Part shown: positions 1-36,700 of the stretch, piece by piece
Numbering within the stretch: position 1 is the stretch's first letter
Layout of the letters: every line of letters begins with the position of its first letter
NCBI GenBank assembly: GCA_036172245.1
Contig: JAYWIR010000014.1
Coordinates: forward strand, 2,542,001-2,606,000
Source of the DNA: Raillietiella orientalis
Lineage: Eukaryota
Reading direction: 5' to 3'
Length of the DNA: 64,000 nucleotides
The notes under the pieces: model-generated
The model's input: only the letters and a program-made list of their open reading frames with translations
Databases searched by the model: none
What the model was told of the DNA's origin: nothing
Made by a program: the position numbers and the translations under genes

Positions 1-3000
1 CACGTTTCAATGGAAATTAATACTTTAGCACCACCCTTTTTTGTAATTCATAAATGATCCGGAGTACTTACTACTGTGGGGGGCTTCCGCGGTCGTGAAC
101 ACGTAGTCCTAGCAAGGAACTTCAAAAACGAGCTTCGTTCCCTCCGCTTTGCAATGATCACAGTGTAACATCCTTGCATATATAAACGAGTAATGAATGC
201 CCCGAAAGGAAATGAATCCCTCTTTGTATTGCAGTTCCGGTTCCACGGGGTTCATGACTATACACAGTTACCTTAAAGTTAGGCTACTATGGGGTTTGTT
301 ACAAATCCTTGATTGGGTTTCATTTAAAGTAATTCTTTGTTCACTTTTGATATTGTTAGGACCTTTGTTAAGTCGGTTTGAATACTATACTAAAAATGCT
401 TTCGAATGTGATCTTTGAATATAAGGGACATCGTTTGCTGCAAGAACGAGGCAACTTTTGAACGAAGCACAGGAGGGACAAGAAATGAACTTGTAATGAG
501 CATGTGACGAAATCTGCGGAGTTAAAATTAATTGCAAACCCATAATTTTATTGACTCTTAGTTATTAGCTCAAGAAGGGGAAAAAATATAGAGTATTCAT
601 TAGACTCTATTATCATGTGTACCTTGCTTTTGTCTTTTTTTAAAAAACAAATGACTCTCTACATAAAAATATGAAATGACTCCAAATAAAGTGCACCTTG
701 TCGGAAGTAAGGTGACATAATGGTATCTTCTTAAAAACACCTATATTCCTGCCATTTTTGTTTGTATATGCTCGCTTATAATCATATTCCGAGATGTTGT
801 CGAAAGGGTTAATCTTGATTTCAACTACTCTCTGTTAAAATATTGTGCTCATTGACCTGGCAATTCTGATAACGAATTGAATCTTGGCATCTCTGAAATA
901 ATGCAGCTAATACTACTGGATCTGGTTCCAGGTTTCACCTTAATGTTTTACCTTGTAAATAAAGTAAGTGTAAAATGAAAAAGCATAATCATGCAAATCT
1001 TGGACACCAATCCTGAATAACTACTGTAAATCGGTCTTGTTACTAAGTCAATCTTAGCGGATCACAAGAATTAAAAGCTTCGTAGGTAGATTCCAATTGT
1101 AATCCGCCGAGCAGTCTTTTAAGGGGAACTTTTCGAGTATGTCTCCAGTTTTGAAACACTTTCGAATGTTTTCAAATGACATCTGTGCATTTTTACTAAA
1201 TTCACTATCAATAGGGGAGCATTTTTTCATTCTAGAAATAATCTGAGCTGCAAGATCTTATCATACTAAAAGATTTAGCCTTCCAGAAAGCAAGTTCGCT
1301 CTGCTTCTCATTCAATCGCCCATTCCTTCAAAGGTAGCAATCTTGTTACTCATTGCTTTCTTTCTTTGTTACTCACTCTGATTTTTCTCCATAATTTGTT
1401 TATCAATCAGCACAGACTTCTCATTTTCTCACAGCAACTTTGCACAAAACTTCGTTTTGTAGAACGGAATCAGAAATACATCGAAAAACGCCTTTTTTTT
1501 TTTTTACCTCGATAACTAAGTGTAAAATTCAAAATAATAATCGTCACTTGCCACAAGTGTTTTTCTCCTACTCTAGCTGGACACATCCTCAGTCTTCAGA
1601 CAGTAGTGTATTTGGATGATCGCCGGTTTTTCTCACTGTCATCGAAAAACCCTTGACAACAAATATGCAGCAGAGTTCATACTTATAATACTTGTTGGTG
1701 CGTTATTGCTTAGATCATGCTTGTCTCAATTCGAATGATAATTTTCGTCATAGTCGCACTTTTAGAAACCGACTCTGGCATGCTAAGTTGAACGATTACA
1801 TGAAAGCAGGGAAGGAGTATCTGATTTTCCTATGAAATTAACAGACTCGATCTTGAAAGCATTGGACACACTATGGTACGCGTGAGGCCACGGCAAACCG
1901 CGTGGTTTGCAGTTGCTGAGTGCAATACAAGGAAAAAAGAGAATGAGCCAAAGCTTCTGCAAGAAAGGCGTCTTGTGGGTTGAGAAAAATGACTAACTGA
2001 CTAAATCGATGAATTCGTAATCCCATAAAGATTGAGTGATAGAGGGTCCGCGGTTATAAGTTTGGTAGACTTGAAGGTAAAGAAAAGTAGACGATAAATT
2101 CACAAAAGACAGATAGATAGATAATTCTGATTTTCTTGGTGCGATGCTAAAAAAAATCAGAATTTGAAGCAACTTCAGTATAGAAACGGCTTCTCTCTGC
2201 ATTTCTATAAGAATTCACTATGATTTCAACTCTACACGTTGTTGAATAACCCAAATCAAACATGTTTTGGCATTCTCGGGAATGCTAAAGTTTATAGTAA
2301 AGTGGGAGCGAAAGCGGTATTGATGGAAACTGAAAATGCAAAATCTTGTAATTATGCTGTATGGGAGTTTGGGTGAACGTCGGCAAACTGCATCCACATT
2401 TAATTTCTAAGAAAAAACTTTGTCTGTACCTTATATAACAATTACAACAGACACATGCATTATTAAAGTCTAACTGGTATGTCATGATAATATTTTGACT
2501 TGGAGCACGACAGTGCCCAATTCCTTTCTATTAGCTATTATAATGCTGTTTCAATCATAGGAAGCGGCTCTGAAATGTGCTCCTTCCCGCAAGAATTTCA
2601 CGAGATTTGAAGACTTTCCTAGCCTTGTTCAAACTTTACTACCATAGCATTCTTCCACATATTAGCAGGATTATCTCTTGAAAAGTACTGTAGTTTGTGC
2701 ATTACGAAGGTCCTACGGAAAGAAAAATTCTCTCCAGTGTCTTTGACTTGGTCAAGAATTGTCGCTTGAAACGTGTCGATGGCAAAGCGATTTTTACAAC
2801 TGAAAGGGATAACTTCCCAAATTCAATGAACACCATAAGAAGTTGGAATAAATTATTTCATTTGGCGCTTTCATTCATCTAAAAATGCCGTGCCGTGCCT
2901 TTTCACCGTTGAAACGCTAGTAGAAAATTAACGCACATAGTGCTATCGTTCTGCCATGAATGATGGTACAAACCGGAATAACACGAATATCTTGACGGTA

Positions 3001-3157
3001 ATCAATCTAAAACATGTACATCAGAACCTTAAACAATACTAGTCATTGAGGAGTACCAGCATTCCCAGCAAGCTGCCATACAATTACTTTAAATAGCTTA
3101 GTTGGAGGATTGCATCCCCATCCTTCTACATTGGCATTTTGTAATTTTACTTATTCA

Positions 3158-3163
3158 TTTATT
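3158..3163 (-). terminator. Candidate poly(A) signal (AATAAA) of LYRM1
   Basis: tttatt on the + strand, 14 nt downstream of the LYRM1 TGA stop. Confidence 0.6.
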
Positions 3164-3177
3164 TGAAATATTACGTG

Positions 3178-3559
3178 TCATTCTAATGAACGGATATAAA
3201 CTGGTCTTGACTGTTTGATTTTCTTAATGTGCTTGGATTGAATATTTGTATTTGATGGGAAATTCACTGGACGTGGATAAACATTTCGATAATGAAGAGC
3301 TATACACCTAAGGGGGTAAGCAAGTGAAGCAGTTTAACACCTGCTCACCTAGTTCCAAACGGGCTTCAGCTTCCATTATGCACTCTTTAATATGAGCTGG
3401 ATCAGTCAAATGCTTATTTTGTCGAAACAGTCGTTTAGTTTCCTCTCTGATATAGACTCTTTCTGCTTCTGAATTCGCAGGGTCTTTTGCTGGCCATGTC
3501 TTTGCTAATCTCAACAGTTTCCGATACAAAGAAAGCACTTTAATATGTGTGGAACTCAT
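3178..3559 (-). CDS. LYRM1: LYR motif-containing protein 1 (mitochondrial LYRM family), 2 coding exons: 3559-3349, 3299-3178; 110 aa
   Basis: MSSTHIKVLSLYRKLLRLAKTW...ERVYIREETKRLFRQNK...EAEARLEL, spliced across a 49-nt GT-AG intron to ALHYRNVYPRPVNFP...SRPVYIRSLE*. LYR motif plus the LHY-x2-YPRP and PVYIRS C-terminal motifs typical of LYRM1. Confidence 0.9.
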
Positions 3560-3633
3560 GAGTGTCACTGAACATCATTAGGAAGCTACAGGAAAACAAA
3601 AGCAATCAGTACACAGCAGACTACAAATAAAAG

Positions 3634-3639
3634 TTTATT
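3634..3639 (-). terminator. Candidate poly(A) signal (AATAAA) of STOML2
   Basis: tttatt on the + strand, 11 nt past the STOML2 TAG. On the - strand it is followed by U/GU-rich sequence (ctttta tttgtagtctgctgtgtactgattgcttttgttttcc). Confidence 0.6.
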
Positions 3640-3650
3640 GAAATGCTCAG

Positions 3651-5258
3651 CTAAGGTGCTTTAGAATACTGAGAAGTGACTTGACTTTCACTTTCAGTAT
3701 TCATCCCTTTTTCATCACTCTTACGACTGACATCTAATACTGCTTTCCCAGCCATACTTCCCTGCAGCTTGGTTTCTAAAGGCGCTGCTGTTCTAGTCAG
3801 CTGACGATAAATTGCCAATGCCTAAAGCATTGATCAGTCCAATTTGTATGGTTAGCTCATCAGCATACCTGAGAAACAATATTACTGACATCCCCTGCAT
3901 TCACTGGAAGAATGAGGGTATTGGTATCTTTAGCGAGATGCTGAAAGGACTGGACATATTGTTCTGCCACATTCAGAGAAGCAGCTTCTGCACCATGCTG
4001 GATAAACATGTGTAAAAGCTCCACAAACTGCTCACTCAACCTCTTCTCCAATGGCACTGGATACAGCTTTCAAACCTTGTGCTCGTGCTAATGCACGAGC
4101 AATAGTTGCTTCAGCTTCTCCAGTTGCACGGTTGATAAATTCCATTTTTTCTGCTTCTATTCACAACAAAAAACTGGACTCAATTTCCATAATAAAGCCA
4201 AGAGCCAACTTCTTCCTACCTGACTGCAAGATGCGTGCTTTTTTCTTCCCTTCTGCTACATTAATTTCTGATTCTCTAATTCCTTCTGATTCCAATATGG
4301 TAGCTCTCTTTTTTCTTTCTGCCTCCACCTGCATTTGCATAGCTTCTTGTACACGAGTTGGAAGCTTGATGTCTCCTGAGAACACAATTATGGTATGCAG
4401 GTTTTTGTCTTACGTATTTCATATCGCATGCAAGTGATTCCCCAGGCCTCAGACGCCTTGTTGATCGAAGTGACAATAGCTAAGTTCAGGTTCTCCCTTT
4501 CCCTAAATACATTATCCAGAGTAATCTTTCCCAGTTCTGATCTGAAAGCACAAATCGGCATGGAAACACAACTTAGATACACAGGGATAATTGCCTCATT
4601 GTGGTCTGTGCTATTTGGGTGATGGCAAACTCTGGGTCTTCAACTCCATAACTAGCACGATAAGGATCTAACACTCTTAAGAATAAAACACCATCAATAT
4701 TGAGGGTTACATTATCTGAAATATGTGGTCAGAAATGTGCTCGTAAAACATAATTCTGGCAACAACTAAACAAATACAAACCTAGAGTAATGGCTGCTTG
4801 TTTAGGTATATCAATAGCAATTTCTTTCAAAGACTGCACGTATTTGATTTTATCCAAAAAGGGAATAAGAATATTAAAGCCCGGCTCTAAAATGCGATGA
4901 TATTTACCCATTCTTTCGACTACCCATGCCTACAGCAATGACCAACTTCATTTAAGTATTTTAACCTTACCTCTTGCTGTGGTACAAAAAGAAGAACTGT
5001 ATTCATCGGAGTTGTAGATGCACTCCTGACTTGCAAATTACATAGCTGGCTTTGGTTGCTCCGGAGTTTTAGTCTTCGACATAGTTGGAACCTGAAAACC
5101 AGGGCATAAATTCAGTGCATGTATTCCAAAAGGCATTTTTTGCCATTTCAAAAATAGGCATGCATATTATCAAATTGTACAATGCAGAACGAATTGTACT
5201 TCACGTACACTGATCGAAGATTGGCTTGATTCAGCGTACTTCCAAACGTATTCCACAT
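3651..5258 (-). CDS. STOML2: Stomatin-like protein 2, mitochondrial (SPFH/Band 7 family); 9 exons: 5258-5209, 5091-4971, 4929-4782, 4715-4595, 4541-4414, 4375-4220, 4156-4041, 3997-3869, 3821-3651; 379 aa
   Basis: The spliced frame is continuous (1140 nt). It reads an Arg/Ser/Leu-rich presequence-like N-terminus, then NTVLLFVPQQEAWVVERMGKYHRILEPG, DNVTLNIDGVLFLRVLDPYRASYGVEDPEFAITQIAQTTMRSELGK, WGITCMRYEIRDI, QMQVEAERKKRATILESEG and AASLNVAEQYVQSFQHLAKDTNTLILP. Exon 1 is the least certain part. Confidence 0.93.
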
Positions 5259-8200
5259 CTCTTTCCCAATAAATAATTCGCAACAGTCACATGCATTTGC
5301 ACAGATCGTGCATTCAGTGCTTCACATGATTACTAACTACCTTTACGAATAAATGGATAAAATACTCCCAAGACAAGAGATTATGCAAAACAAGAAAAAT
5401 GCACTGCTTATAAATGCAAAAGAGATTAACAATATTAACAGTTTAATGCATATAATTTATTAGATGCACTCAGGAATGATGAAATTAAGAAAATATTCAA
5501 AAATATGTATATAATGAACTATGGACCATTGGTGAAAATTTCGATTCCACTAACGATTATTTATTCTGATAACTAATATGACATTTTGCAATATAATATT
5601 TTTATGATCGATTAATTACTTTGTTGAGTTGGAGATGGCAGAGTCAGAAGTTACCATGAAATTTATTTGTTAAATCTATCATGAAACTTACGAATTTACC
5701 CATTTCCTTCCATTAAATACAATCGGTTACAACAGTTCACTTCTAAAATCTTAATTGCTTTCAATTCTCATAATTTCTGAACTATATTTTCTCAGCAGGG
5801 TTGAGACCTTGAAAAAATGTGAAAATCCAAATTCCTTATGTAATTTAAATATAAACATTATTTCTCTGAGATACAAAAAAAATATTCAAAGGGAACTCTT
5901 TTCAGTTGATATGTAACAAGGATATTCTACTAAAGTTTCCATGGAATTTAACTGGTGTTTTTTTTTAAAAAAAAAACAATTAAATAAGAAAGAATACAAG
6001 GATGAATGTTACAAAACAGAAGTACATTGGAAATAAGCTGATGAGCCAATACATCTAAAGGAAAGGAAGATGTTTAAACAGCAAACAGCTTCTCTTCGGG
6101 AACCCAAACATACACATTTCAGGAATAAAACTCTTTTATAAGCCTACTTTCATGAGGATCGAATAAATGAAAATATGAAAATAATGATAAAATTAAAACA
6201 TTCTTCCTTTTAAGTGTAAGGAAAGGTTCCCCTTGAAGACAGACAGTTGTAAATCAAGAACTGAAAACTAGAACCATACAAAGAAGCCTGGTCATAGATT
6301 CTGTTCAGAAAGATAAGCATGCAAAAAGCCTGTAATGTAAAGAGATCTGCATAGATTCTGAATGCACAAATTCTAAATTAATTTAGGCACTCATTTCCTT
6401 TTCATCTTCATTTTTGAAGATGAAAAGATGATTTCATTTCTGAAATTCATGAAAAATTGGTATGTGTTTGTGTGTGTGTTTTTGATTTTGCTATCTTCAT
6501 CAAAGGAGCCATCTGCAAACATCCTGAGCCATATCCCATCGTTGCTTCGAATTGTTATCTTCAATTCTTCTTAGTTGTAGTAATTCAGAGATTCAAAAGG
6601 AGTACAAAGTTTGCTATTTATTTTATTCAAGATATTTACTGTATTGGACACACATTGCTATAAAATAAAATAAAATCCATGTGATAGTCCTGACAGTAAA
6701 TCTGATCGATCAAACATATACTTCTTTTCATCCGAAATATGGATTCGATCACATGAATTTTACAAGAACTCTCCATGAAATGAGAAAAGTTGGTGATAAT
6801 TAGAAAAGTCATTCATTCGCATTCGAGATCGTGGTATTGTCTTTTGCACGAAGTACAGCAGCAATTTTCTAATTATAGCGAGTGTTTCCATATCAAAAAC
6901 AAAGTAACTAATCCATTAAATAGGCTTCAGTTTGCTTAATGCGAAGAAATGTCACTCTGAAGAAAAAAAGAAATCTGGCAAATTTTTTTGGAGATGATTC
7001 TTTTGGTATTAAAGCTTCGCAAATCCTTATTCTTGGTATTTATGCGTGAACATTTTCGAGTGTCCAGATTATGAAATTCAGCCTAATTAATGGTTTGAAT
7101 GACTCCGTCAGAGCTCACTTGGTCTATGATGCTCATCGGCTTGGAGAAGATCGGAAGTTGGGTCACTGCAGCTTAGTGGAAGGTGGCAGTGGATTCCCAA
7201 GGTAGTTCTGCATGCTGGAGATCACTCCAAGAAATCACTCTGTGTCCGAGACATTTCGAAGCACTTCACCTCTGGAGCTAACAATGACTAGGCGGACAAG
7301 ATGTGAAGATGTGAAAGAACCTTTCCGAAAAAACAAAACACAAGCGTGGAATATCTTTCTTCCTGCTCGGGTTTCGGAATGTGGATGAATCATCAGACTT
7401 TTCCCAATGCTCAGCGGTCTCGTTTCACTCTTGAACAGCAGACCAGTCTGGATGCAGGGAGAAGGGCCAAAATTCGGACTTGGGGACGAACGTGCATTTT
7501 TTTCGCGCTCGCAATCAGCTTGACCAGCGAATTTTCCTGAGCCTGCAGTCCCTGCTGCCCACATTTTCCCTTTGGAGAAACTTTTCCGTTCCCAAAACCC
7601 AGCTTGCGTAAACCCGGGGGAACGCACTTCGCCGCTTCGGGATTCTCGCCATCACCACTCGTAAAGCACGAATTCGCTTTTCCTACGAAAACGAAGGAAC
7701 CATATAGAGAAGCCCCATCCAGCCTGCAGCCGCCTGCGTCTCATCGAAAGGGGAGGAAACGCGAATGCTGCATACCTCCACTCGCATCCGTGGAAGATGC
7801 TTCTGCGGACGGACGGTTGCCAGCCTGTGCTCCGTTCTTCTCGAGAGACTGCGCCTTAAAGTAGAGCTGGAGTGGAGAGACGGGAACCTCCCCACTGCCG
7901 AAGAGCGCGACTTCCCTTTGGGAGGTCTTGGTCGATTCCTCTGCGAGACTCGCCTCATCCTCTTCACGTTGATGGGAACTGCTCTTCCAGCCGGCGTGTG
8001 CTCGTAGCAGAGGTCGCTCGTCCCGGTCGCGGCATCGGACTCTTCCGGGAGCGCAAAAAACGGGCGGGATCGACCTCGTAGAGAGCCTTCGGGCGGAACA
8101 AAGAAGATGAGGGTAGAATGTGCGAGAATGTCTTGCACGATTCTTTCAACCTTCCACCCCATTGCGCATCCTGCAGTCTTCCCTGCCGTCCCGCGCGAAA

Positions 8201-29400: not shown

Positions 29401-29460
29401 GTTATGATACAAAATAGACAAAAGAAGCTACTTGTGAGAGTCCGAGCTTTTTGATAAATG

Positions 29461-32400
29461 ATGCCGGGGAAAATAATGGTTAAGATTCTGGCAGGGAGGA
29501 ATTTGCCGGTAATGGATAAGACCAATGATACCACAGATGCATACGTAGAAATAAGATTTGGCAATGACATTCGTAAAACTGATATATTCAGGAAATCACT
29601 GAATCCTCAATGGAATTCTGACTGGTTTTTGTTTGAGGTTAAAAAAAATTGAAGAAACTTTCCTTTTATTGTACTAATACAATGTAGGCAGATGATTGGG
29701 AATTACAAGATGAACCCTTACAAATCAGGCTGATGGATTATGACACGTACTCTGCAAACAACTCAATAGGAAAAGTACATATAAATTTAAATCCACTTCT
29801 TCAAGCAGATTCATCCCATAGGCCTGTGTTAAAGGAAGATTTATCTGCGAGTAAGGCACACTGAATGATTTTAGCCTAATTATATCATTAAAATTTGAAA
29901 ATGACGAACGTTCTGAAATGGTAAATAACATGTAGGAACATCAGCATTTTCTGGGTGGATTCCTGTTTATGACACAATGAATGGAATTCGTGGAGAAGCC
30001 AATGTTATTGTAAGAGTTGAGTTTTTCAGTGATCTTAATCGATTTCGGGAATCATCGTGTGGCATCAGTTTCTTTTCTAGTGAGTCCATATTTTGATTAT
30101 GTATTTTTAACGTATTACAGCTTCAGCAGTCCCTCCTTGCTACCGATTGCAAGCTGCTCATGGTTTTGTGGAAGAATTAGTGGTGAATGATGATCCTGAG
30201 TACCAATGGATTGACAAAATTCGTACTCCAAGAGCATCAAATGAAGCAAGGCAAACCCTTTTTTTAAAACTGGCTGCAGAAGTTCAAAGGAAAATGGGAA
30301 TAAAAGTGTTGGAAATGGGAGGAAATGCTGTCTTGGGGTGAGACACCAACACTGCATCAGGCTTCCAATTTTTCCTTTCAAAGATATCGCATTTCTTTTG
30401 ATTTGGAAGGGGAATTTGGTATTGTTGTTCGTGGGTGTGGTTCAGCTGTCACCATCCAATGGATCAAGTCTAATGTAGGTGATGGAATTGAGTAAGTGAT
30501 CTTGAAAACTTGCATTGCATGGTAACTGTAATGTCATTGTAAAGGTTCATCTATATGTTTGTGAAAACTTTCATTTTTTGAATTTCCAGTCTAGATGTCT
30601 TAGGATTACCACCTCTTGCACAGCGAACTAGAAATAAGAGTACAGAATCTGCTATTGTAACTAACTTGCAGGGTTCATCAGGTTCTCAGGCCATCAGAAT
30701 CCCTGCTCCATTAGGACAGGAAATATTGGGAGAAAAGCTGGATCAGGTGCACAAAGGTAACACAAAGATGTATGCAAACATGAAGATTGACAATTAAATT
30801 TAGGTAGCTTTGGTTCATTTGAGCAGGCCCGATGTAATACTCAAAAGATGACTGACCTGTTGGATGGTCTTGAGTATCCCTTTTTTACCATGAATGCATT
30901 TCCTCCAGGATTCATTCATAATTTGGGTAGGTTAAATGAGAAGCTCTGAAAAAATAAATGTTATTAGCTGGCACTGTTAGTGCCAGTTCTGTGAAATTGT
31001 TGGATAAAATTAATCATCCAGAAGAGCCAGAAACTAGGGATTCCTGGTGGTCAGAACTACGGATAGAAATGCGTTCACATGGCAAAGCACTAGGATGCAA
31101 TGGAATACTGGGATATCACGAGCAAACTACGATTTGGTAAATGCATTCTCAGTTGTTGCAATGCATCAAGAAACTATAGTGATGGAATATGCATTCTTCG
31201 CTGTAGTGGCACAGCAGCTGTTATCAATAATGCATTCTGTGGATTAGACTTGGAAAGTGGAAACATGAACCAAATAGCATTAGGCATGGTGAGTGTTAGT
31301 GAAATGTGTTGAGTAATAAATAATGTTTGATTAAGGGATTCCCTTGCAATGTGTGCCATGTTCCCTATAATGAAACACAACCCCCATTTCCGGTAGTACT
31401 TAATCCGTGTGCTGTGTGCAGGTGAGATTCAACAAGATGATGTCCTCTAAAGTTTACAGGCATGGGCAAGTGCCAGACATCCTTTTAACCACCATTGAAG
31501 TGCCCTCTTGTTTGGAAGTGACTGGTCATGGCAGCTTAATCCAAGCTTATGTGTGTCGGTCTCGCCGTGAGTGTCGTGGAGAAACTGGGGCCAAAGATAT
31601 ATCGGACAGTTTGCCCTTTTTGGAGTATGATTTGCACAAACAACTATTAGCTCGTTTGAAAGCCAAATCCATGAATGCAGTGTTTGGGTTGACAGTGAGT
31701 AACCCATAACCAATGCACACATGCTGTTCTGCAGATCCAGATAGCACTGGGAGACCGTATGCTGGCAGCAGTGGCTACAGGAACTGCTGTGCGTTTGACT
31801 GCTTTGCCTCCTTCTGTGTTCCCTAGAAATGTTGTTAAAGACAGGGATATTGTCCAAATTGAGCAGAATGCTGGAGAAGAACTCAAATTCGGAACAACTC
31901 CAATGCTTCTCCCTGAGAGTAAACATGATTCTGAAATCCTGTCCACAAGTACTGCCAACGACCGGTTTATTTTAGAGGTGAGAGAAACTGAACAAAGTAC
32001 TGCATACAAGAACAGCTAGATGCGTATGAGGATGTGTCCACATTGAAAAGTCTTCTGGATGCTCCTACCTTCTTCCCATTTGAAACATCTAATTGTGAAC
32101 TGATTCCGGGTGCTGAAGGAGTCATTGAAAACCAAAAATCACAGTTCTTCTTGCAATTTTGGAGAGGGAAAATCGGCCTTCAATCGCAACAATTCAGCAC
32201 TTGTTTTGAGCAGCTCCTGTTGGGTCTGTTTTTCCGAATGCGACAGCTAGCACCTTGGGCCATCTCCAAACTACAGTATAGTGTATGCCTTCCTGAACAG
32301 GAGGAACTACAAATCATTCTTATGGGAACTGCCTTGAGGAAACCTTGTGACATGGTTTCACAATCAGAACCAGTATTCCAAATGGATGAAGATGATGCAC

Positions 32401-32869
32401 TTTCAGGGATCAAAGTAGAATTAGATTATTTAAATCAGCCATCTTTGAACCAAAAACCCCTGAAGCGTCAGTTTCAAGGCATTGAAATCACTTCCGCCAT
32501 TTTCTTACCAGGCCACCATATCAAACGTTATTTAGGATACCTCAATTTCTTTTTCATTCGTGAAAGTAACAACATTCGTGAGGTCAGCAGCTTTCATTTG
32601 ACAGTCATCAAATGTTGCTTTGTAGGAAGGGAGCCTTCACAATTTCACTCAAAAATTTTTGACTGAAGTTTTGGGAATAATAAGGGCTCATGTTGCAGCA
32701 CTGGGTGGCAATGCAATGGTAGCTTTGTCACTCTGTGCATACGAATTGCTGTATAATCCTTATCGTAATCAGGTAAGAACAGATCTTGGCGCATTGGATA
32801 ACAAACACATTTCAGGGACATTGCCTAATCAGTCTCAGTGGAGATGTAGTGCATGCAGTTTTGGAATGA
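29461..32869 (+). CDS. C2CD5: C2 domain-containing protein 5 (C2CD5/CDP138/KIAA0528); 15 exons: 29461-29637, 29688-29850, 29936-30079, 30121-30337, 30384-30491, 30590-30756, 30804-30926, 30968-31136, 31180-31288, 31336-31421, 31460-31694, 31735-31977, 32016-32582, 32626-32772, 32816-32869; 902 aa
   Basis: The spliced frame is continuous (2709 nt) and all introns are GT-AG. Motifs: MPGKIMVKILAGRNLPVMD, KSLNPQWNSDWF, LQDEPLQIR, GFVEELVVNDDPEYQWIDKIRTPRASNEARQ, EEPETRDSWWSELR, ISDSLPFLEYDLHKQL, LNFFFIRES, RAHVAALGGNA and CLISLSGD. A second in-frame ATG lies at 29458. Boundaries of the poorly conserved exons 6-7 are less certain. Confidence 0.93.
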
Positions 32870-32893
32870 AGCATAGCTACATCATTAGCACAT

Positions 32894-32950: not shown

Positions 32951-33726
32951 TTACAATGAACGTTTAAAACTTCCCAAAAAAGCATTGCAGTTTGGGCAAT
33001 AGTGTTGTACATCCATGCAACTTGGAATGCAACAAGGAATCAAGCAACATCCTAACCAGCAGCTGAAAATTAGCAGCAATAAATCCTTCTTTTTTTTTTT
33101 ACATTCATCAACTAACCCAATTAGGCATAAAAAGCCACCAGAGAGAAATGCTAATATTCCTGGTTCCGTCTTAACTAAAGTATTGATTTCTGCATGGCAT
33201 GTTGGACAGACCATATGGGTTGAACTTGGTCCCAAAGGCACTACTGTGGTCAGAACTGGAGAAAGTACATAAGTTTTTTAAGAAATCTACAAAGTGTTTA
33301 AATGGGTTATTGGTAGTACATACTAGCTGGGAAAACAAAGCCAGCAGAACCGGGTACAGCATGCACTGGGGGAGGATTACATTTGTTATCAGCATAATTA
33401 GCACCTGTTCATAAAGGATGCATCCATGAGAGCATGCATTTGTAGTTAGAGGGTGATAGAGCATGTCATAAATATCATCAAACCAAAACAGAACTGAATA
33501 GCACACTTTCATGAATGTATCAAAATTGCAAAGTGCTAAATATTTTGAAGTTGCATATGTGTTGATCAGTGTGTAAACAATTACTGAGCACAATGGCATC
33601 ATGTCCAGCTGATCCATTAATACCTGTCTGATATGGTGAATGGTAGATGGGTGCAGAAGGAGGAACACCTCCTACAGCCTGCGAATAGGATGGAGGTGCT
33701 GCTGGTATCGGCCCACTCTTGTACAT
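32951..33726 (-). CDS. LITAF: LITAF/SIMPLE-family zinc-binding monotopic membrane protein; exons 33726-33624, 33404-33324 (81 nt, skippable in frame), 33255-33117, 33062-32951; 144 aa (117 aa without exon 2)
   Basis: Pro-rich N-terminus with PPSY and PSAP motifs (MYKSGPIPAAPPSYSQAVGGVPPSAP), then LGPSSTHMVCPTCHAEI, a hydrophobic GGFLCLIGCWLGCCLIPCC segment and DVQHYCPNC (the CxxC...HxCxxC pair). Confidence 0.88.
33078..33083 (+). terminator. Candidate poly(A) signal (AATAAA) of C2CD5, located inside the last LITAF intron
   Basis: First canonical AATAAA on the + strand after the C2CD5 stop, followed closely by a T-rich tract (33087-33100). Confidence 0.4.
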
Positions 33727-36700
33727 CTTGTTTGAATAAGCTAATTTCAAACCTTAACAGTAAACATGCCTAAAATACAAGCACATCCCATGTAAATGAT
33801 CGTAAATGCGAACACAAAGTATTTTGAAATGACGCATCGCTACATCATCAGCACGTTTTTGCTTGCCACATCTAATTGTGAACAGCATTTCAAACAGCAT
33901 TGACACCGAACGCAGCACCAATCCTCATAATTTTTGGGTCCCAACAATATGAGCACGAGAGAGCGACAGGCACAGCAATTTACCTACGAAAGCTATTATC
34001 TGTAATTAAGACCGCATACTTTGTTCTCAAAATATCAAACCTTAACTTGAACTCCCAATACATGCAACCTAATGAATTCTAATGAATTTGCTCTGCTTTA
34101 ATGAAAAAAAAAAAAAAAACAGACGGAAGGTGGTCACATGTTCGACTTGCTGATTTTCGTTGCATATGTTTCGAACCGAACAATTTGCATTAACAGCTTT
34201 AAAATCCCCACATAAGAACAATCAAATATATTTCTGATCTTACCTGACCAGGGACAGTAATATGAACAAACAATAACACAAGTAACAGTCATACTATATG
34301 ATGCAGCCCTGGCTCGAAAATTTGTACGTTTCCATGGTTTGACGTCATACACATCAACATAGTCATCAAATTCCAAACAGGCTCTATTTACAATCCCCCT
34401 TCTACACGAAAGCAGACAGCCAAAAATGTATTCATGTTTCATAGAGAGGATGTCATCGTAACTCTTAAACTTCCAGATACTGTGTTGCAAGCTTTTAGTA
34501 TGGATGTGAGATTAAAATCTTCTTTCTTACGTTCGCATAAAACGCATACATTGCGTGCATTGGCAGTGATCTGAAACGAGGGCAAATAAAAACAAACATC
34601 AGAAGGATGGATAAGAAAGAGATGGAAGTAGAATGTACACGGTTCTTTCTAATGAAACGTTGCTCTGGTTAAGACTGATTTCCTGGGGGGAGGAGAGGGA
34701 GGGGGGGACGACTTAGCATATTTGGGAATCACTCGATCCGTGCTTCAGCTAATTCAGAGCTGAGTCATTTCTTTGAACTTTCATATATTAACTCGGTTTT
34801 GCCCTATTCTGATGCTTACCTTTCGAAATTTTGTTAGCAGTTCAACCAACTGAATTCTAAACATGCTGAGATTAGGAAGAAATGAATAGGCACGGGTAAT
34901 TTTCTATGATACTCTCTTTTCATATTATACTGCCTATAACAATGTGGATAGAATTCTTAGCAAAGAAAGAAACCGTAAAGGAAAGGCAAATATAGGAAAA
35001 TGGAACCTATTGAGAATCCTTTATCTCTATGTAAATAGTTTCAGCAGATGAAAACGCAGTTTACCAGATTAGCTAACATCTGGAATTCTATCGTTCTCAC
35101 ATTTATAGCTTCAGTTAGCTGTGGTTATGGAAATTCAGTTTGTTGTGCTCATTAACCAGTTACATTAAAGGACAGAAATAGTTATTTAACAGAGGTGAAG
35201 TACGCTCACAAAATGCCCATGAATTCGATCATCTGTAAATTGTTAAGGACAAATAGATTCAATGCAATATGACGAGAGATTACCTGCAGTTTCCACGACA
35301 TATCCATGGAATACTTTATTAGAATTGAAAAGTGAATTGGAATGATTAGGCGACAGACAAGTGAAACTCTAAAATTTCACCATATAAACTATATGCTTGA
35401 AACAATGTATCATATATCTTTGTGTTTTCTGCATTTCGGTCTACGAAACACAAGTGTATTCTTTCGGTGCATAAAGGATGTATCATACTGTTGTAGAAAA
35501 TACAACCTGAATTATGATGGATTATACGAGAATTTTGATTAGTTTATGGATATGAAAAGAAAAAAAAGTGGGAAATGTCTTCTATTCTTAAATTTAGCTG
35601 CATCTGGCAATGCTTTTCACTTGAAAACAGGTATGCCAGGATTATCTGATGCGAGATTATCCATACAGCCCAAAGATAACAATTTCATGGGCTTCCGAAT
35701 TATTTAGAAAGGATGAAAAAGAAGGTATTGGCAAAACAAAAAATCGAAATGACTCATAGATAACAGACACGTTCTGAGGTCTTAGCATCATCAATGTTGC
35801 AGTGAGTGCCGAGTGTCAGTGTTTACTTGGCACAGCTACTTTCTGCCTGAGTCGCATACTTCGATGAATTTTACGAATTCCTGAAAAGATGAGAAAACCT
35901 TCCTCGATCTTTCAACATTCGGTTCTGCTCCTTCCCCTTTCCTTTCTAAGTCGCATCTTCACTACATGTGTTAAATGGATCCCGCAACAAGATGGCGCTA
36001 ATTATCGAAAGGGTCATCAACATTTACTCGAGACCTGCATCCTGCATCCTCTTCTGGCTTGCAAGTGTGGATCCGCCCATCTCCCTACTCCCCCACTCCC
36101 TTGCGATTTCAACCTCTGACGCTCCATAAGATTTGAACTCGAAGGAGAGGCTGTTTGGCGTCTGGGAAGATTGCAGCTTTTCCTTCCATCTGGGGAGAGT
36201 GGCAACAATCTCTCCTTCCTAGTCCTTCTTGGATAGGGACTCCTGGGAGCTTTCGGTGCCCTCTGGAGGTTTCAGTCTGGTCGGTTGGGCCATGTGGCAC
36301 TCAAAAGAAAACACCCAGGAAGATCATTGCCCCCTCAGGGTGAAGCGAGACGGAGTTGAAAGTACTCCAAGAGACCCGAAAAAGTGCGTTTCCCTGGCGA
36401 CGCCGCGCCTCTGATCGGCTCGGGTCCCGGGCACCTCCCCTCTTCTTTCTCCACACGTGGATTGAGCCATTTATGCACTCCTTTGTCGTCACTTGCCGCT
36501 TCGCCTCCAGCGCCAAAAATAATCACGCGGGCGCCGGAAACTACGCTCGGCATCCTAGCTCCACCACATGCATGACCTCCGCCGCCTCGGGCGAACTCAA
36601 CTTCCTTGGCTTAGCTTCCTGCGGCTTCTTGTTCCAGTCGGCAAGGAGAGGTCAGGGCGGGTCGAGTAGGCTGCCAGTGAACCGAAGGGTGGCAGCCTCT

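Follow-up and report, generated by a model that had tools for sequence, protein, structure and literature searches.

The window, by which we mean the whole 64,000-nucleotide stretch of Raillietiella orientalis DNA analysed here, carries on its minus strand the genes STOML2 (stomatin-like 2) and LYRM1, both coding for mitochondrial proteins, and the question raised by this locus is how the second of them obtains its mRNA. Leader-resolved operons, in which co-transcribed genes are separated by trans-splicing of a spliced leader (SL), are known from nematodes, tunicates, flatworms, cnidarians and chaetognaths. A preliminary description of the window had proposed a similar arrangement, with LYRM1 produced from a transcript shared with STOML2. 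Reading of the minus strand and joining of the open reading frames confirmed that the two genes are co-oriented, head to tail, 91 nt apart and both intact. The gene-level features are as follows.

3651-5258, minus strand: STOML2 coding sequence, 9 coding exons, 379 amino acids, open after joining
5258-5209 (modelled), 5091-4971, 4929-4782, 4715-4595, 4541-4414, 4375-4220, 4156-4041, 3997-3869 and 3821-3651, minus strand: STOML2 exons
3178-3559, minus strand: LYRM1 coding sequence, exons 3559-3349 and 3299-3178, 110 amino acids
3158-3163, minus strand: AATAAA downstream of LYRM1, 14 nt past its stop
5100-5760, no strand assigned: CpG-rich zone at the STOML2 5' end (CpG observed/expected ratio 0.82), presumed promoter of the unit
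5335-5343, minus strand: mid-strength donor in the STOML2 leader (47th percentile, intron from 5340), a candidate end of a shared exon that may be due to chance

Band_7 and Band_7_C matches were found in two of the six STOML2 exons scanned. The introns of this gene measure 38-117 nt, one of them with a GC donor, and its first exon is a model prediction that remains uncertain, with a donor at the 3rd percentile. The LYRM1 product matches the Pfam LYR family (E 9e-17) and was the sole match of its type in the genome search; of ten homologue clusters that were looked up, six bear the name LYRM1 or LYR-motif protein 1. The ATG at 3559 was taken as the LYRM1 start because homologues begin within a few residues of its methionine. 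A word-index search returned no LYRM1 homologues, the best ESM Atlas score was 0.88, which serves as a lead only, and a metagenome scan with LYRM1 exon 1 gave 263 pattern hits, none of which was confirmed.

Splice sites were scored with matrices built from 295 short introns (median 45 nt, range 32-70 nt) predicted by a simple gene model, itself trained on approximately 570 kb of mostly AT-rich loci of this genome. All percentiles given here refer to these 295 introns, which are predictions in which weak sites and weak donors are under-sampled. The signals in and around the spacer are listed in the direction of transcription.

3686-3760, minus strand: nearest usable donors, in the last STOML2 coding exon, for introns from 3757 (34th percentile) or 3691 (22nd percentile)
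3653-3651, minus strand: STOML2 stop codon TAG
3560-3650, minus strand: spacer from the STOML2 stop to the LYRM1 ATG, 91 nt, 44% T, free of CpG
3634-3639, minus strand: AATAAA, presumed STOML2 poly(A) signal, 11 nt past the stop
3621-3622, minus strand: first acceptor-like AG (69th percentile), 30 nt past the stop and near the expected cleavage site
3605-3609, minus strand: CTGAT, weak branch-like motif about 20 nt before the acceptor at 3586
3586-3601, minus strand: pyrimidine tract and strongest acceptor (AG at 3587-3586, behind TTTTGTTTTCCTGT), 88th percentile, 26 nt before the ATG
3581-3577, minus strand: CTAAT
3540-3578, minus strand: out-of-frame upstream ORF of 12 codons, with ATGs at 3578 and 3575; it extends over the LYRM1 start
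3568-3569, minus strand: proximal acceptor AG (18th percentile), 8 nt before the ATG

Several elements of the preliminary description held on inspection of these signals. The AATAAA lies where it had been placed, and the two upstream ATGs are indeed out of frame and removable by the proximal acceptor; they would be kept with the acceptor at 3621 or 3586 and are lost only with that at 3568. The statement that the spacer contains no strong donor also stood, since the candidates at 3624, 3621, 3614 and 3612 outrank 2, 5, 3 and 0 of the 295 modelled donors, respectively, which places them at or below the 2nd percentile. Both acceptors that had been named are present, but the emphasis on the proximal one was misplaced (18th percentile versus 88th for 3586) and the acceptor-like site at 3621 had been overlooked. 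CTAAT, which had been read as a branch motif, was rejected as branch evidence: CTAAY was seen near the 3' end of only 12 of the 295 introns, and 10% of the 3895 non-coding windows contain CTAAT, so that the motif is uninformative against both counts. CTGAT is likewise weak branch evidence, since no more than 15 of the 295 introns have CTGAY near their 3' end. No stable structure was predicted when positions 3670-3540 were folded (z +1.55).

The rarity of these signals was estimated by comparison with other non-coding and post-stop sequences of the genome. An acceptor as strong as that at 3586 occurred in 3.2% of the 3895 AT-rich, non-coding 91-nt windows, and together with AATAAA in 0.2%. Among 50 modelled post-stop stretches such an acceptor was present in four, at least one of which follows a false stop. 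A T content of 44% was reached by 5 of 56 other post-stop stretches, and AATAAA within 91 nt of the stop, found for 18 of 50 modelled stops, is ordinary in this genome. The 3' splice site before the LYRM1 ATG is unpaired within the spacer, as in SL operons, but pairing with a donor inside the final STOML2 exon would still be possible, and a donor was also absent beside 97 of 192 strong background acceptors.

We then asked whether LYRM1 might possess a promoter of its own, using CpG content as a proxy. The CpG observed/expected ratio is 0.22 at 3560-3900 and 0.14 at 5760-6400, on either side of the CpG-rich zone at the STOML2 5' end. For comparison, 21 other small LSM and LYR genes of the genome were used, after one duplicate locus had been dropped. 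In these genes the upstream CpG peak (median 1.10) exceeded the downstream one (median 0.54; Wilcoxon p 2e-4). The highest 300-nt ratio within 1 kb upstream of LYRM1 was only 0.47, below that of 20 of the 21 genes, the exception being a match beginning late in its protein; this proxy is confounded by the upstream gene body, and the low value may simply reflect the body of STOML2. When starts were predicted automatically, 5' and 3' CpG content did not differ significantly (29 versus 41 genes, p 0.36).

The preliminary description had also suggested a hunt for other close co-oriented gene pairs, and inspection by eye of the gene model in the sampled DNA revealed five more. Of these, one has the same layout as STOML2-LYRM1, two seem to be cis-spliced and may have promoters of their own, one is mixed and one is dicistronic. 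At locus L072 an aminotransferase-type gene, which we take to be serine palmitoyltransferase, precedes a gamma-tubulin complex gene with GCP domains. An acceptor at the 98th percentile lies 81 nt after the upstream stop, the spacer donors are at the 1st percentile, the CpG ratio is 0.32, and the spacer has no AATAAA. No ATG is in frame in the exon behind this acceptor (L072:470-690, G000:C18); the closest one overlaps the stop of the preceding gene, and a GTG codon stands 3 nt into the exon. For its start, the gamma-tubulin complex gene may depend on a non-ATG codon, on a leader, on a shared exon or on a weak donor. At L173:1800-1400 (minus strand) a DEAD helicase gene with AATAAA on its stop is separated by 122 nt from a gene that is presumably mitochondrial EF-Tu; the site at +55 is both acceptor-like (82nd percentile) and donor-like (39th percentile), and CpG rises to 0.9. 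At L172:2800-3250 (plus strand) a presumed malate dehydrogenase gene lies 189 nt before a DEAD helicase gene, with AATAAA at +20, a strong donor at +54, weak acceptors and a CpG ratio of 0.35. At L162:5200-4800 (minus strand) about 380 nt separate a gene assumed to be BCCIP from a downstream DEAD helicase gene, with several donors and acceptors in between and a CpG ratio of 1.3 nearby. Close packing in this genome therefore needs no trans-splicing, since L173 and L162 have ordinary spacer donors and a CpG rise, and L172 has a strong donor. The fifth pair, at L085:5120-4372 (minus strand), is a classic dicistronic one, in which the second exon of an LYR-motif ORF extends over the beginning of a gene with an RF-1 domain; its Pfam match is duplicated on C93 and C99. 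It resembles fly CG30100, which is dicistronic with a 10-nt gap according to the supplement of PMC4528330.

An acceptor scoring at least 5.7 was present within 91 nt in three of the four non-overlapping pairs less than 200 nt apart, versus 192 of 3746 background windows (p 5e-4), with a threshold that was set after the scores had been seen and with STOML2-LYRM1 itself among the three. Two further candidates for strong-acceptor pairs were discarded: at L168 the stop is a false one inside a helicase gene, and at L176 no gene follows. At L163:1480-2950 (plus strand) a short proline-rich ORF, presumably PNRC-like, stands about 1 kb before a same-strand DEAD helicase gene. CpG in the intervening DNA is close to zero, an acceptor-like tract precedes the ATG by about 210 nt, and the locus may be a further unit. 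Convergent pairs are commoner than close same-strand pairs and are also tightly spaced.

The proposal of a shared transcript thus gained support, because the spacer region lacks a promoter-like CpG zone, its donors are unusable and other close same-strand pairs exist. STOML2-LYRM1 is a real gene pair, probably co-transcribed, and one instance of a layout that recurs in this genome, and taking together the readings that involve a common transcript, we consider co-transcription of the two genes very probable. As for the single mechanism, trans-splicing of a putative leader onto LYRM1 appears the best candidate, and we favour it tentatively, at slightly less than even odds, because of the CpG and recurrence results. 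In this model the STOML2 promoter would drive a single transcription unit comprising both genes. The upstream message would be cleaved and polyadenylated some 30-40 nt past its stop while the polymerase goes on, and the downstream RNA would receive its cap through spliced-leader trans-splicing onto the unpaired acceptor. The site at 3586 would be the strongest choice, that at 3568 would also drop the two upstream ATGs, and that at 3621 would sit at the expected cut site, as in operons without intercistronic DNA. The LYRM1 message would end at its own AATAAA. Two separate messages fit, because each gene has an AATAAA of its own, and cleavage followed by leader splicing fits best because of the two poly(A) signals, the strong acceptor that lacks a donor in the spacer and the missing promoter mark. 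The junction appears to work like an operon junction, yet we do not class it as an SL operon, since the leader that defines this class is putative here.

Among the other mechanisms, a Drosophila-type dicistronic mRNA comes into consideration as a real but clearly lesser possibility. The STOML2 poly(A) signal would be read through and LYRM1 translated from the second position, the mRNA being either unspliced or spliced from a donor in the last exon (3757 or 3691) or a weak spacer donor to 3586 or 3568. Drosophila has 159 such pairs, with gaps of -34 to 319 nt at exclusively polycistronic loci, and the upstream cistrons often possess an alternative poly(A) site (PMC4528330); the intact, non-overlapping ORFs and the 91-nt gap found here fall within that range. 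The same genome contains the overlapping LYR ORF and release-factor pair at L085, the donors at 3757 and 3691 lie 107 and 41 nt before the STOML2 stop, and the absence of a promoter mark is explained equally well. However, cleavage should be efficient at a canonical AATAAA with a T-rich tract behind it, and translation of LYRM1 would have to take place after an ORF of 379 codons and a pair of out-of-frame ATGs. Use of the donors in the exon would alter the STOML2 C-terminus, and in the unspliced form the strong acceptor would have no purpose. An in-frame STOML2-LYRM1 fusion, using a phase-1 donor and the acceptor at 3568, is possible on paper, with nothing in its support.

A shared 5' exon seems unlikely. 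A leader upstream of STOML2, ending at the donor at 5340 or at 5619 or 5699, would be cis-spliced over STOML2 to a LYRM1 acceptor, so that STOML2 would effectively be nested in the first intron of LYRM1 and its poly(A) site would compete with the splice. The donor at 5340 lies inside the CpG-rich zone without a good acceptor between it and the modelled STOML2 ATG (5261 and 5259 are at the 3rd percentile), and in other genes, as judged by eye and uncounted, acceptors stand within a few bases of the ATG and have ordinary donors upstream. Against this, donors of like strength (5699 and 5619) recur by chance in the AT-rich stretch, and the splice would skip 1.75 kb in a genome with a median intron of 45 nt. 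It would also bypass eight exons with strong sites, which should be hard under intron definition; the acceptor at 5092 outscored those of all 79 introns of the first set. Placed slightly lower still, and in our estimation the least probable of the readings, are two independent genes in a compact island, LYRM1 having a promoter inside the last STOML2 exons or the spacer and a short 5' UTR that is unspliced or contains an intron of 36-57 nt from a weak donor. Several convergent pairs in the gene model are indeed only 26-153 nt apart, the distances from the weak donors at 3621 and 3614 to acceptors (36 and 47 nt) fall in the 32-70 nt intron range, and the first modelled donor of STOML2 itself reaches only the 3rd percentile. 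But the ratio of 0.22 at 3560-3900, the CpG-free spacer and the higher peaks of 20 of the 21 small genes speak against a promoter at this place, as do spacer donors that outrank at most 5 of 295 against such an intron.

With the SL2 operons of nematodes (C. elegans and Trichinella; PMC1657053, PMC7668243) the junction shares two same-strand genes about 100 nt apart, a poly(A) signal, a U-rich stretch and an unpaired acceptor close to the ATG. In those operons about 100 nt separate the poly(A) signal from the acceptor, often with a TAYYTT element, and the median distance from poly(A) site to acceptor is about 125-130 nt, versus about 0-55 nt here (PMC1657053, PMC7668243). This Ur motif, situated about 50 nt before the nematode trans-splice site, has no match in the STOML2-LYRM1 spacer; it is found in only 48-65% of predicted Trichinella downstream genes (PMC7668243). 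The host here also differs in being an arthropod, and our searches found neither an SL1 match nor an SL2-type RNA. Tunicate operons are mostly two-gene units, as here; those of Ciona have no intercistronic DNA and those of Oikopleura 23-30 nt (PMC1488885), which compares with the acceptor at 3621 near the expected cleavage site. In the same article 16 of 18 Ciona operons lack an upstream AAT(T)AAA, whereas STOML2 has a canonical one. The genes of chaetognath operons, which have been validated by their leader, are less than 250 bp apart (PMC12460157), and the spacing here is likewise short. Chaetognaths have lost gene-body methylation (PMC12460157), whereas the CpG-depleted gene bodies in this genome suggest its retention.

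The preliminary description had called a polycistronic origin of LYRM1 unusual in an arthropod-like genome. This holds only for leader-resolved operons, which a 2021 article gives as unreported for copepods and amphipods (PMC7986045); dicistronic pairs and shared exons (PMC4528330) as well as leaders (PMC4664967, PMC5111886) are all known in arthropods. Drosophila has, besides its 159 dicistronic pairs, 130 genes sharing 5' exons (PMC4528330), and small and mitochondrial proteins are over-represented at such loci (PMC4528330, PMC2276209). Like these, the present locus belongs to an arthropod and joins an unrelated pair with a gap in the observed range. The conserved small ORFs of PMC2276209 lie upstream of the main ORF, whereas LYRM1 is the downstream member and follows a poly(A) signal and a strong acceptor. 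The terms used gave no Stoml2 or LYRM entry in the 12 supplement files of PMC4528330 that were searched. Spliced leaders in copepods (PMC4664967) and amphipods (PMC5111886) show that arthropods can trans-splice. Copepod 5' UTRs average 24 and 17 nt (PMC4664967) and are thus short, like the 8-26 nt expected here. Copepod leader genes stand in tandem or beside 5S genes (PMC4664967); none was found beside the 5S genes of this genome. For the nocturnin exon of the window, insects, a spider and crustaceans matched first, at no more than 55% identity, and neither a copepod nor an amphipod was named among the best 120 matches; by this exon, the database contains no close relative of this arthropod.

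If the junction receives a leader, it would represent a further independent origin of leader-resolved operons. It would then offer a test of whether leader splicing precedes operons, and of the proposed link between operons and loss of gene-body methylation. A search of literature titles and abstract openings returned no description of leader-resolved operons in arthropods, and such an operon would, if true, surprise specialists. If the locus is a dicistronic or shared-exon one, it is an ordinary case of the class catalogued in Drosophila. It is conceivable, at odds somewhat against, that a substantial fraction of the housekeeping genes in this lineage lies in operons that a lineage-specific SL resolves, with less than 60 nt between poly(A) site and acceptor and gene-body methylation apparently kept; at L072 the leader might even supply the start codon.

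The search for an SL RNA gene with an Sm site, which had been suggested as a check, was made in a genome of 210 Mb (491 contigs) and gave none by Rfam, by two patterns or in the neighbourhoods of snRNA and 5S genes. The Rfam SL1 model had no match in the genome, and its positive control was also silent; Rfam likewise returned no match in window positions 1-8000. A promoter-donor-Sm pattern gave nine matches, all single and forming no family (control 27), and a donor-Sm pattern 191 matches versus 212 in the control, with no repeated sequence among the 100 of the 191 matches listed. These patterns cover some of the donor and Sm variants; the first misses leaders longer than about 43 nt and the second single-copy genes. 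The genes for U1, U2, U4, U5 and 5S RNA were located in the genome, and the 133 kb surrounding them contained no leader RNA gene. A relaxed donor-plus-Sm clustering of the same 133 kb gave 63 matches, whose clusters were snRNA copies, their flanks and duplicated 5S flanks. Rfam identified only U1, U3, U5 and 5S in four snRNA/5S stretches, and the amphipod leader core was found in none of 181 loci.

The promoter mark used in the first pattern was MACTRCRY, a candidate snRNA promoter element that precedes several U1, U4 and U5 copies at a distance of about 54 nt (L013-L015, L017, L019, L020, L087:26). U1, U4 and U5 copies (L001-L004, L014, L019-L023) also have 0.6-1.6 kb of downstream DNA in common, 65-80% similar, which suggests snRNA-headed repeats. 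The five top U2 matches examined (L007, L008, L009, L011, L012) include no full-length U2; all lack the first 28 nt or so and are joined to A-rich DNA at the same position. These truncated copies resemble site-specific retroelement insertions of the Utopia or Keno type.

The window as a whole (1-64000) is bimodal, with AT-rich islands (30-40% GC) that contain housekeeping genes with introns of about 45 nt, and GC-rich stretches (55-69%) between them. Convergent neighbours often end 26-153 nt apart. A C2-domain gene at 29460-32870 (plus strand) and a convergent LITAF-like gene at approximately 33250-34300 (minus strand), both named after the preliminary description, have CpG-rich 5' zones. Elsewhere in the genome, what we take to be a U12-type 5' splice site opens the first intron of one LSM gene and of two SmE-like genes (L045, L050, L051).
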